Shown here: piece after piece, positions 14,945-19,266 of the stretch
Layout of the letters: the number at the start of each line of letters is the position of its first letter
Numbering within the stretch: position 1 is the stretch's first letter
Virus record (IMG/VR): IMGVR_UViG_3300044858_003398
Length of the DNA stretch: 64,000 bases
Direction: 5' to 3' (one strand)
From: a virus
Notes under the pieces: model-generated
Told to the model about the DNA's origin: nothing
Database searches by the model: none
What the model saw: only the letters and a program-made list of their open reading frames with translations
Translations under genes and position numbers: made by a program

Positions 14945-15628
14945 ATGGACGAAATCAAAATTTTGATAGACTGTACATTTGGGCAAAACTATGGGAAAAA
15001 TCCCATAAAAACCTCAAGGGCGGTCTATCGAATCTTATGTCTGCCAAATCATAAAGTTTATGTTGGCTCTACAAACAACGCTATAGTTAGATTTCGCACC
15101 CACAAGGCGAGATTATCTAATGGTGAATTCCATTCTGTAGCGATGCAGTCTGATTTCAATTTCTATGGGAAAGAAAACTTTTCATTTGGAATCATAGAAG
15201 ATGATATCTTGATAGGAGTCGATAACATATATGCTAGGGAGGCATATTACATACGGCTTTATGATTCAACTAATCCAGATTGCGGATACAATCTTGCCCA
15301 CGTTAACGAATCCGGATCGTGCAAGTTCTCTGAAGATACAAAAAAGAAAATGAGTAAATCTGCCGAGGGCAGGATAAACTCAAGCGAGACTAGGGCAAAG
15401 ATCAAACTAGCTAACACTGGTAGAACTCCAGCCAAGCATAGCATAGAAGCCGCAGTAATCTCAAGATCAAAAAGGCATACCTTCGTTTCCCCAGATGGGG
15501 AAGTGGTGGAGATCTTCAATATTAGTAAGTTTTGTAGAGAGCACAACTTACAACAATCGTGCATGTCAGAAGTATCAAACGGTAATAGGAATTTTCACAA
15601 AGGTTGGAGGAACTATAATGGGCGTTAA
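14945..15628 (+). mobile_element. GIY-YIG homing endonuclease with NUMOD3 repeats
   Basis: AVYRI....HKVYVGST....RF..H; E..YI..Y.S....GYN; NUMOD3-like SEDTKKKMS and SSETRAKIK. Confidence 0.88.
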
Positions 15629-16358
15629 GTTGAATCAGATCATTGCTATTGCAAACGGAAAGAAAGCAGCAGCCACTGCCGCCATCACGGAAATTTACAA
15701 GGTCTTGCAGAAACCGGACCTGTTCGGGGGTTTCACTCGGGTTTACCAGCCCAATGACGACGAGGGCGAGAAGCTCCCCTCGGAATCTAAGATTGTTCAG
15801 CAGACGGTCGCTGCAAACCTACGAGCCGCCCAAGAGCAACTGGTTGAACTCTTCGACACTATTGCTACTCAAGAGGTGGCAAACTGTGAGGCTAAAGCCG
15901 ATATCGTGGTCGGTGGGACGACCTTGGCCACCCAAGTTCCCGTCTCGCTCATGCTTTTCCTTGAGAAGCAAGTAGACAACATGAAAGCACTGATTTCCAA
16001 GCTGCCCGTGCTCAGCACGGACACTAACTGGAAGGTTTCTGAGAGCGATCCAAACATCCACGTTACGGATACAGTGACGACCACACGAACCAAGAAGGTG
16101 CCCAAGGCGTTTGTCAAGGCAGCAGCCACTGACAAGCATCCTGCCCAAGTTGATGTCTTTACTGAAGACATTATCGTAGGAAACTGGAACAAGGTGGAAA
16201 TGTCTTCAGCGGTGCGAATCTCAACACGAGACGCGATGCTCAAAAAGGTCGACTCTCTCCGAGAGGCGATCAAGATGGCTCGCGAAGAAGCGAACTCCAT
16301 CGAAGTAAAGAAAATTGAGATTGGTAAGAAGATTACCGATTTCGTGTTTGGCGGCTAA
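15618..16358 (+). CDS. Uncharacterised helical/coiled-coil protein (MGVKLNQIIAI...) linked to a downstream ncRNA
   Basis: GGAGG at 15606-15610 before ATG 15618; 246 aa; long amphipathic helices at both ends around a beta-rich middle. Confidence 0.85.
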   Translation: MGVKLNQIIAIANGKKAAATAAITEIYKVLQKPDLFGGFTRVYQPNDDEGEKLPSESKIVQQTVAANLRAAQEQLVELFDTIATQEVANCEAKADIVVGGTTLATQVPVSLMLFLEKQVDNMKALISKLPVLSTDTNWKVSESDPNIHVTDTVTTTRTKKVPKAFVKAAATDKHPAQVDVFTEDIIVGNWNKVEMSSAVRISTRDAMLKKVDSLREAIKMAREEANSIEVKKIEIGKKITDFVFGG

Positions 16359-16369
16359 TCGCCCCAAAC

Positions 16370-16800
16370 GAACCATATTGAGGACCTCTGGTCCCTCTGG
16401 AAAGTAGAGTAGCCTTAGTATAAGATTCAGTTTCATTCGTATTGATGGCAAAGTGTTGGTTCAAATCCAACCCCCTGCATTTTCAACCACGCAGGGGTAG
16501 CCCAACGGTAGAGGCACCATCAACGAAGTAAGCTTTAGCTTATCTCTACAGGCTAAGTACCGATAGTAGAGTTGTAAATCCAGTTCTTATCGACAAACAT
16601 TTGTTTATACGGGTTCAACTCCCGTGGTCGAAGCCATGTTCAGATGCGTCTGAGCTAGGCTTCGACCTAGCATAACGGTTAATGCAGCAGACATAAGAAT
16701 GATCGATAGGATTAAACGAAGATAGTTACAACAATACTAGTAATCCGAAAGGATATAACACTACCGCCCCGGTCTATGTGCTATTAGGCCGGGGCATTTT
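16370..16800 (+). ncRNA. Large structured RNA with two permuted tRNA-like (YrlA-like) modules
   Basis: Module 1 at 16442-16523 and module 2 at about 16583-16700; each has a T-arm (TTCAAAT or TTCAACT loop), a closed acceptor stem and a D-arm (AACGGT loop) on a long imperfect stem. Confidence 0.8.
16766..16800 (+). terminator. Intrinsic terminator
   Basis: GCCCCGGTCTA...TAGGCCGGGGC followed by ATTTT. Confidence 0.8.
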
Positions 16801-16830
16801 GTTGGCTACGCCAACCTTTAAGGAGAAACC

Positions 16831-18304: not shown

Positions 18305-18814
18305 ATGACCTTCCTAGACCTATTTGATTCTCCCTATTCCCCAGCTAACGACGACAAAGTCACTCGTCTAGCTCGTGAGCTTCCCAAGCTGCCAAAGTCC
18401 ATTATCATTGTGGACGTTAGTGGTAGCATGGAATTGCCTAACGGCAATTATTCAAGGTTGCAAATTGCGGCAGCTTTAGCTGCCGAGATCAAGTTGCGGG
18501 CTGACGCACCCCTATATGCCAGTTCAGGCCTTGACTCTGACCAATCCCACATCACCGAGCAACTCAACTATGATGGGTTTAATCTATGGTTGGCCCTAAG
18601 AAGAGCCTGTTATGATTTTGGTGGTGGTGGGATCTTCCTAGAAAAAGCTGTTAAGCATGTCAGCCACTACCATGTCAAGCCTGAAAGGCTTTACATCCTT
18701 ACAGATGAGCAGAACTCCTACCTGCCAACTTTCGGCAAAAGCGTCTTCAATGTTGATGTCGGTTGTCAGTCCTTCGAAGAAACTCGCAGAATGCTAGATT
18801 TGGAGGTCGCATGA
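18305..18814 (+). CDS. Stand-alone VWA domain resembling the C-terminal domain of TROVE/Ro60-like proteins
   Basis: MIDAS motif IIIVDVSGSM, AAALAA helix, GGGIF and LYILTDEQ; no TROVE HEAT-repeat region. Confidence 0.7.
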   Translation: MTFLDLFDSPYSPANDDKVTRLARELPKLPKSIIIVDVSGSMELPNGNYSRLQIAAALAAEIKLRADAPLYASSGLDSDQSHITEQLNYDGFNLWLALRRACYDFGGGGIFLEKAVKHVSHYHVKPERLYILTDEQNSYLPTFGKSVFNVDVGCQSFEETRRMLDLEVA

Positions 18815-19266
18815 CCCTATCCTTTAAGAATGGTTGCCTAATAGAAGCGGCCAAGAATAAAGAGATCGACTACTTGATTCATTGTGCGAATTGCTTCTCC
18901 ACGATGGGTTCAGGAGTGGCCAAACTTATCAAGGAAGAATTCCCAAAAGCCTTCTTAGTAGATCAGGCCGATTATAGATCCCCGATTGAGAGGATCGGCT
19001 CATATTCTTCAGTCTTCCTGAGTGGGTTGACTATTATTAATCTATATGCTCAATATGACTATGGGACATCCTGTCGTAAGTTTGAGTATGGAGCCTTCAA
19101 GAGAGCCTTGGACGAAATCTGTAGAGACTTCTCTTTTACTGGGAAGACTATAGGTCTTCCAGAAATCGGGTGTGGTTTGGGGGGAGCCGACAAAAGTCTG
19201 GTCCACGATATCCTCGAAGATTATGCTACCGAAGGTAGCTGGACAATTTACACGCTAGGGAAATAA
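18811..19266 (+). CDS. Macrodomain (ADP-ribose processing) protein
   Basis: IHCANCFSTMGSGVAK.IK..FP; IINLYAQY; LPEIGCGLGG. Confidence 0.9.
   Translation: MTLSFKNGCLIEAAKNKEIDYLIHCANCFSTMGSGVAKLIKEEFPKAFLVDQADYRSPIERIGSYSSVFLSGLTIINLYAQYDYGTSCRKFEYGAFKRALDEICRDFSFTGKTIGLPEIGCGLGGADKSLVHDILEDYATEGSWTIYTLGK

Follow-up and report, generated by a model that had tools for sequence, protein, structure and literature searches.

The gene for a DUF7873 protein in this viral genome is separated from the next open reading frame (ORF) by a gap of 472 nt, which holds two tRNA-like modules and, around the first of them, tracts of six-nucleotide repeats. Which role do these hexamers play, and does a protein read them? 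The window analysed here is a stretch of 64,000 nt from a 123.6-kb viral record that is related to Gordonia phage GodonK and rich in tRNA genes; five tRNAs were found in the window at Rfam gathering scores. The initial annotation of the window had proposed that the tracts are repeated binding sites for successive subunits of the protein encoded upstream. Its letters and coordinates for the tracts were exact (5' tract, 16411-16434; 3' tract, 16531-16542, followed by TCTCTAC and then by 16550-16561). The locus is composed of the following features.

15618-16358, plus strand: DUF7873 gene (246 aa, P0001; Pfam PF25283, E 6e-89)
16404-16409, plus strand: 5' strand of helix P1, GTAGAG, pairing with 16544-16549 (family consensus GAGCG)
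16411-16434, plus strand: hexamers H1 to H4, AGCCTT AGTATA AGATTC AGTTTC, followed by a conserved A at 16435
16436-16448, plus strand: 5' strands of the closing stems of module 1, TTCGT and GATGG (the latter at tRNA positions 39-43), from the minimum-free-energy fold
16455-16515, plus strand: tRNA-like core of module 1 in permuted order, from an ARAGORN cloverleaf after permutation and from pairing counts
16455-16471, plus strand: T arm of module 1
16472-16478, plus strand: acceptor 3' strand of module 1, CCCCTGC, followed by the discriminator A at 16479 and a closing loop to 16490
16491-16497, plus strand: acceptor 5' strand of module 1, GCAGGGG
16500-16515, plus strand: D arm of module 1
16517-16527, plus strand: 3' strands of the closing stems of module 1, CCATC (tRNA positions 27-31) and ACGAA
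16531-16542, plus strand: hexamers h1' and h2', AGCTTT AGCTTA, inside P1
16543-16549, plus strand: 7-nt insert T-CTCTAC (family consensus T-CGCTC-Y), in which 16544-16549 is the 3' strand of P1
16550-16561, plus strand: hexamers h3' and h4', AGGCTA AGTACC, outside P1
16564-16739, plus strand: tRNA-like module 2 with a long closing helix and a long variable arm
16564-16577 and 16726-16739: closing helix of module 2, TAGTAGAGTTGTAA with TTACAACAATACTA
16577-16581 and 16709-16713: AATCC paired with GGATT in module 2
16584-16590 and 16693-16699: TTCTTAT paired with ATAAGAA in module 2
16609-16625, plus strand: T arm of module 2
16626-16632, plus strand: acceptor strand GGTCGAA of module 2, followed by G-CCA
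16661-16667, plus strand: acceptor 5' strand of module 2, TTCGACC, with the D arm at 16670-16685
16714-16722, plus strand: AAACGAAGA motif of module 2
16766-16803, plus strand: intrinsic terminator of the non-coding RNA, a GC-rich hairpin with a subsequent T run

A longer ORF of 287 aa starting at 15495 is probably an over-extension of the DUF7873 gene. An ORF resembling GIY-YIG/NUMOD3 homing endonucleases (14945-15628) ends about 10 nt past the DUF7873 start codon in another frame. Further downstream, the ORF at 18763-19266 encodes a Macro domain (E 2.5e-5), and the ORF beside it (18305-18814) is without a Pfam match. Between the DUF7873 stop codon and the 5' strand of P1 lies a GC-rich hairpin, GGACC-TCT-GGTCC (16381-16395), which has an equivalent in many loci and may serve to process or protect the RNA at its 5' end.

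In the 5' tract of the window, sequence identity at a lag of six nucleotides is 0.61 and ranges between 0.12 and 0.32 at other lags (shuffle p 0.0008, for a region picked after the fact); the 3' tract of the window, taken alone, shows no significant periodicity (p 0.13). The analysis was extended to 240 DUF7873 loci fetched from viral contigs, metagenomes and species-representative bacterial genomes, the latter from Streptomyces and other Actinomycetota, Planctomycetota, Chloroflexota, cyanobacteria, Myxococcota and others. In the 5' flank of module 1, identities at lags 6, 12 and 18 reached 0.43, 0.36 and 0.34 among 41 distinct homologous loci, against about 0.23 elsewhere. Two position weight matrices of 31 nt were built, one for the 5' block (GAGCRC and four hexamers) and one for the 3' block (two hexamers, T-CGCTC-Y and two hexamers). 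Both surpassed the 99th percentile of shuffled sequences in 114 of the 130 distinct loci, and both blocks occurred in the correct order on the plus strand of 159 of the 240 loci and on the reverse strand of none. The window, itself among the 33 training rows of these models, scored 22.9 and 25.0 bits on the two matrices, compared with 99th percentiles of 1.8 and 2.3 for shuffles, and 120 bits on the covariance model R1. It contains all parts that define the family, namely the 5' block, the tRNA-like core and the 3' block, located 3' of a DUF7873 gene.

The array has a constant order: four hexamers 5' of module 1, two after it, the 7-nt insert and one or two hexamers more. Runs of in-phase A...T. 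repeats numbered four on the 5' side in 51 of 85 loci, which is also the mode, two after module 1 in 76 of 85, and one or two past the insert in all 85; runs of at least three were present in only 1.2% of shuffles. The phase of the hexamers is preserved in phages and in six or more bacterial phyla, the consensus being A-R-R-Y-U-N. In most repeats A1 and U5 reach 86-100% conservation, with more variation in the fourth 5' repeat (A in 72%), and positions 2 to 4 are kept only by class (R, R and Y). The periodicity that the initial annotation had expected 3' of DUF7873 homologues is hence present, with phase and number maintained, and its motif AG-N-N-T-N comes close to the family consensus without being identical to it. 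Near-invariance of A1 and U5 combined with mere class conservation between them is the pattern of a recognized motif and not that of a covarying stem.

The conserved non-coding RNA to which the tracts belong measures about 430 nt and seems to be transcribed together with the DUF7873 gene. Both of its tRNA-like modules are permuted: a T arm is followed by the acceptor 3' strand, a short closing loop, the acceptor 5' strand and the D arm. In place of the anticodon arm, where the mimic is opened, the flanks of each module pair with each other, and the loop closes the acceptor end. A simple structural search located the two modules 70-120 nt and about 250 nt 3' of the gene in 135 loci out of 240; many of those without a hit are incomplete contigs. 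According to RNAalifold and pair counts, the core helices of module 1 are 96-100% paired with many compensatory changes; once 85 sequences are aligned to the covariance model, pairing reaches 99.8-100% for the T, acceptor and D helices, and these three were also the only ones recovered by RNAalifold from a MAFFT alignment. The acceptor stems vary and yet are fully paired, with 65 and 80 distinct strands among 130 loci. The closing 5-bp stem of module 1 was fully paired in 69 of 130 loci, compared with 24 when the partner strand was taken from another locus. Downstream of module 2, many loci share the conserved motif GATTAAACG-N-AGA (16714-16722 in the window), whose GATT pairs with AATC of the 5' flank; the pair is AATCC/GGATT in the window and, by compensatory change, AATCG/CGATT elsewhere.

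Among the 130 loci, the closing loop opens with N-CCA, right after the acceptor 3' strand, in 31% of both modules, against 1.6% expected by chance, and the discriminator is A in 80% of the first modules and U or G in 93% of the second ones. By analogy with YrlA of Mycobacterium smegmatis, this suggests that the closing loop is cut and tRNA-like ends are made. Logan contigs from two RNA-seq runs of one study on one Streptomyces relative cover gene and RNA and are uninformative on ends, strand and level. In a Streptomyces homologue (L212:2075-2286), two RNA-seq contigs run back into their own start, in the manner of circular k-mer paths: the first joins 2218/2225 back to 2075/2082 via a shared AGGCAGA, and the second joins 2187/2191, at the discriminator of module 2, back to 2077/2081 via a shared GCAG. 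These joins could result from template switching of reverse transcriptase on an abundant structured RNA or from circularized fragments.

Among known RNAs, the modules resemble YrlA (RF02553), in which a T arm, a loop-closed acceptor-like stem and a D arm are also present and the RNA ends lie in a stem that replaces the anticodon arm (PMC4201824). Two such RNAs in tandem beside one protein gene are likewise known for YrlA, and YrlA of M. smegmatis shares the 7-bp acceptor stem and the signs of a CCA end, which suggest cleavage by RNase P (PMC4201824). Module 2 of five homologous loci matched the Rfam model of YrlA over its full length with 34-39 bits, to be compared with a gathering score of 69; the window had no match to this model at E ≤ 10, and nothing relevant to the region was found in Rfam at that threshold. 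Bacterial YrlA RNAs are bound by Ro60/Rsr (Chen et al. 2014, PMC4201824). In contrast, the partner gene here is DUF7873, and the hexamer array is absent from YrlA. TROVE/Ro60 (PF05731) was absent from the 123.6-kb record, the complete genome of GodonK and five cassette-bearing bacterial genomes, with control genomes being positive. The motif GNCGAAN0-1G, the Ro-binding strand near the 5' end of YrlA, is not part of the family consensus, in which the 5' block consists of GAGCRC and hexamers; AACGAAG occurs in the window on 3' strands only, at 16522 and 16715.

The order of the modules is also reminiscent of circularly permuted tRNA genes of Cyanidioschyzon merolae and some archaea, which start with the 3' half and have their acceptor ends linked by a short spacer. 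Such a gene was rejected: there is neither a rebuildable anticodon loop nor a bulge-helix-bulge, and the flanks are conserved hexamer blocks. On permuted joins, ARAGORN required an "intron" of 87-386 nt and assigned an anticodon that differed by join, and bacteria and phages are not known to have the splicing endonuclease. A tmRNA was rejected as well, as ARAGORN found none, permuted joins included. The three tRNA-mimic families of a 2026 preprint appear to be different RNAs.

The hexamers next to module 1 are framed by P1 (GAGCG/CGCTC in the family; GTAGAG at 16404-16409 with CTCTAC at 16544-16549 in the window). In the covariance-model alignment of 85 sequences this helix is 84.8% paired, both sides change in five of its five pairs, and comparison with permuted partners gave a z of 7.8; compensatory variants include GAGTG/CACTC, GGACA/TGTCC, GACCG/CGGTC and TAGCG/CGCTA. 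The tracts themselves pair only partly with each other, as the initial annotation had stated and as folding and pair counts concordantly showed. This partial pairing is the basis of the alternative that survives best, which we regard as unlikely while giving it some weight and which requires RNA only. The tracts would then form an irregular helix closing the first mimic, composed of 4-bp mini-helices (positions 2-5 against 5-2) with 2x2 loops in between, in which the invariant A resides. The hexamers are quasi-palindromic and therefore able to pair, and since the 5' strand carries twice the repeats of the enclosed 3' strand, two registers 12 nt apart are possible, H1H2 or H3H4 against h2'h1'; such a helix could act as a structural switch or as a flexible spacer.

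Several observations fit this alternative. The minimum-free-energy fold of the window pairs the two tracts (z -4.2). The best register of the hexamers is indeed the one with positions 2-5 against 5-2, and its outer R-U pairs are compatible in about 82-99% of the sequences; U5 can pair with either purine at position 2, which would explain its invariance. Permutation revealed a weak partner specificity (z of 3.1 for H1/h2', 4.0 for H4/h1' and 2.3-4.1 for H3/h2'), covariation was specific to 8-11 and 20-5/20-11 with no general GC effect, and next to P1 the third position of H1 and the fourth of h2' covary specifically (odds ratio 14, p 1e-4). In view of this complementarity and of the covarying pair, the part of the array beside P1 may be helical, either as a short extension of P1 or in two alternative registers 12 nt apart. 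A register pairing position k with 6-k, a pseudoknot of H2/H3 with h3' and a pairing of H1 with h3' were tried and rejected, with partner-specificity z values of at most 2.8.

Nonetheless, the inner pairs of the hexamers form in only 36-84% of the 85 sequences (and are open in 16-64%), compared with 85-100% for P1, the T arm, the acceptor and the D arm, and all four pairs of a block are complete in only 20-42%. Ensemble folding spreads the hexamer pairing over many registers, none of which exceeds a mean pair probability of 0.2. With incomplete inner pairs and no dominant register, the array is not an ordinary conserved stem. Blocks of 4 bp that are rich in A-U and G-U pairs and lie between 2x2 loops would moreover be marginally stable, the unpaired and invariant A1 is left without explanation, and for h3' and h4', which lie outside P1, no covarying partner was found.

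If pairing does not account for the array, a protein may, and the gene that precedes the RNA is the first one to consider. DUF7873 has more than 1000 homologues, nearly all of 242-250 aa, and its gene occurs in more than 500 genomes. GodonK carries a DUF7873 gene of 45% identity followed by the same two modules, and phages with the RNA also carry the gene. On bacterial chromosomes, the DUF7873 gene stands alone amid housekeeping genes and is followed by a gap of 600-700 nt; no other conserved neighbour of the cassette was found in the bacterial genomes examined. Among 101 genomes of Streptomycetaceae, 63 encode DUF7873. A full-length RNA (covariance model R1, E < 1e-10) was detected in 51 of the 101, all of which carry the gene, and in none of the 38 genomes without it; most of the other 12 gene-bearing genomes have a weaker RNA match beside the gene. 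In every pair with compared coordinates the RNA starts about 30-90 nt past the end of the gene.

The invariance of A1 and U5, the conservation by class only of the positions between them, the fixed copy number and the lack of a maintained Watson-Crick partner point to recognition sites repeated with a step of 6 nt, and the strict co-inheritance with the RNA makes DUF7873 the prime candidate binder. From these sequence patterns we read the tracts, tentatively and with slightly less than even confidence, as a periodic array of constant copy number to which a protein would bind, with DUF7873 as the likeliest candidate. Between P1 and the anticodon-like stem lie four hexamers in the 5' strand and two in the 3' strand, and one or two further hexamers follow past P1. 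Each hexamer would provide one binding register for a protein with a 6-nt step that reads the invariant A1 and U5, and the array would load a fixed number of protomers, most likely of DUF7873, beside the tRNA-like elbow. As the repeats are conserved and always accompany DUF7873, they probably serve as evenly spaced docking sites in a new RNA-protein particle. The linkage of gene and RNA would likewise be expected if the RNA were a cis-acting element of the 3' UTR.

A second alternative, which we consider clearly improbable, keeps the periodic sites and assigns them to another factor, such as a host RNA chaperone, a ribonuclease or a complex of tRNA-handling enzymes recruited beside the mimic, and DUF7873 would act elsewhere on the RNA, for instance on module 2 or on the acceptor ends. 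It accounts for the same conservation pattern, the excess of N-CCA points to processing by host tRNA enzymes, and the cassette works in very different hosts and phages, so that a universal host factor is conceivable; against it, DUF7873 is the sole gene that always travels with the RNA, and it does so in the RNA-bearing phages too. That the tracts lack any role at the RNA level, being remains of tandem duplication or a DNA element such as an operator, is very hard to uphold. Slippage can create repeats, and the tracts lie just 3' of a gene; yet their phase, copy number and invariant positions persist from phages through to Planctomycetota and Actinomycetota, whereas the remaining positions drift. 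An RNA helix supported by compensatory changes frames the tracts, their occurrence is limited to one strand, and contigs from RNA libraries of a Streptomyces span the homologous region.

Periodic sites for a protein, the reading preferred here, have precedents. TRAP on (G/U)AG repeats of the Bacillus trp leader, HutP on UAG and CsrA on GGA bind evenly spaced single-stranded motifs, each contacted by one subunit of an oligomer. In the present RNA, the motif is of the A...U type with a period of six and copy numbers of four, two and one or two, in contrast to 11 in TRAP, and unlike the repeats read by the three proteins, those described here lie on both sides of a tRNA mimic and are interrupted by a helix. 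A TRAP-type array was rejected: in place of (G/U)AG triplets with spacers of 2-3 nt and an MtrB protein, the locus has the motif A-R-R-Y-U-N and a protein that matches DUF7873 only, and no match of DUF7873 to the TRAP (MtrB), HutP or CsrA families was found in Pfam. Of the proposal in the initial annotation, the repeated binding sites are supported insofar as the conservation pattern fits recognition sites better than an ordinary helix, and the likeness to TRAP is a conceptual one without family relation.

A step of 6 nt per protomer is known from the Cas7 backbones of CRISPR complexes and from the nucleoproteins of paramyxoviruses (the "rule of six"), whose promoters contain single conserved bases once per hexamer. 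The register proposed here would share this step of six nucleotides with both; RNA binding by Cas7, however, is not sequence-specific. In Pfam and PADLOC, DUF7873 showed no sequence relation to Cas7/RAMP or to paramyxovirus nucleoproteins, and searches of PDB sequences, PHROGs, PADLOC and weak Pfam matches yielded nothing. The AF2 model of DUF7873 has a pLDDT of 88.6, and with it no relative of known RNA-binding fold was identified by Foldseek, VIA-align, BFVD or the ESM Atlas. The top rows of Foldseek were Cas7 chains, below significance (E 1.6e-3, probability 0.3, TM 0.13), and a RAMP protein ranked second in BFVD (E 0.012); VIA-align listed no Cas7 chain, just generic helical or TolC-like matches with Z ≤ 9. 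The structure and feature searches of BFVD and the ESM Atlas returned the family itself and unnamed or DIP1984-like clusters at TM < 0.5. The nearest unnamed clusters include shorter DIP1984/DUF6847 proteins of 170-200 aa from Bacillota and phages, with TM of 0.44-0.65. A predicted complex of three DUF7873 copies scored 0.48, next to a single control at 0.33, which weighs neither way on self-association.

No description of the RNA/DUF7873 cassette was found in Rfam, in the Pfam annotation or in the literature searched on DUF7873, phage permuted tRNAs, Streptomyces tRNA-like RNAs and, from 2018 on, YrlA. Possible, if somewhat doubtful, is the wider proposal that DUF7873 and its RNA form a widespread, hitherto unknown ribonucleoprotein of bacteria and their phages, a counterpart of Ro-Y RNA particles that does not depend on Ro. 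In it, the fixed hexamer array would recruit a set number of protomers, one per 6 nt, beside a split tRNA mimic cleaved by RNase P and ending in CCA. Until now, Ro60 has been the protein associated with tRNA mimics of the Y-RNA type; the related architecture described here goes instead with the uncharacterized DUF7873, which is spread over Streptomycetaceae, other phyla and large actinophages. The hexamer array provides a sequence signature by which the RNA can be located in genomes. Should the array prove to act as a ruler for periodic protein binding, phase-specific RNA recognition would have a new example, and the question would arise of what a phage gains from carrying such a particle among its tRNA genes.
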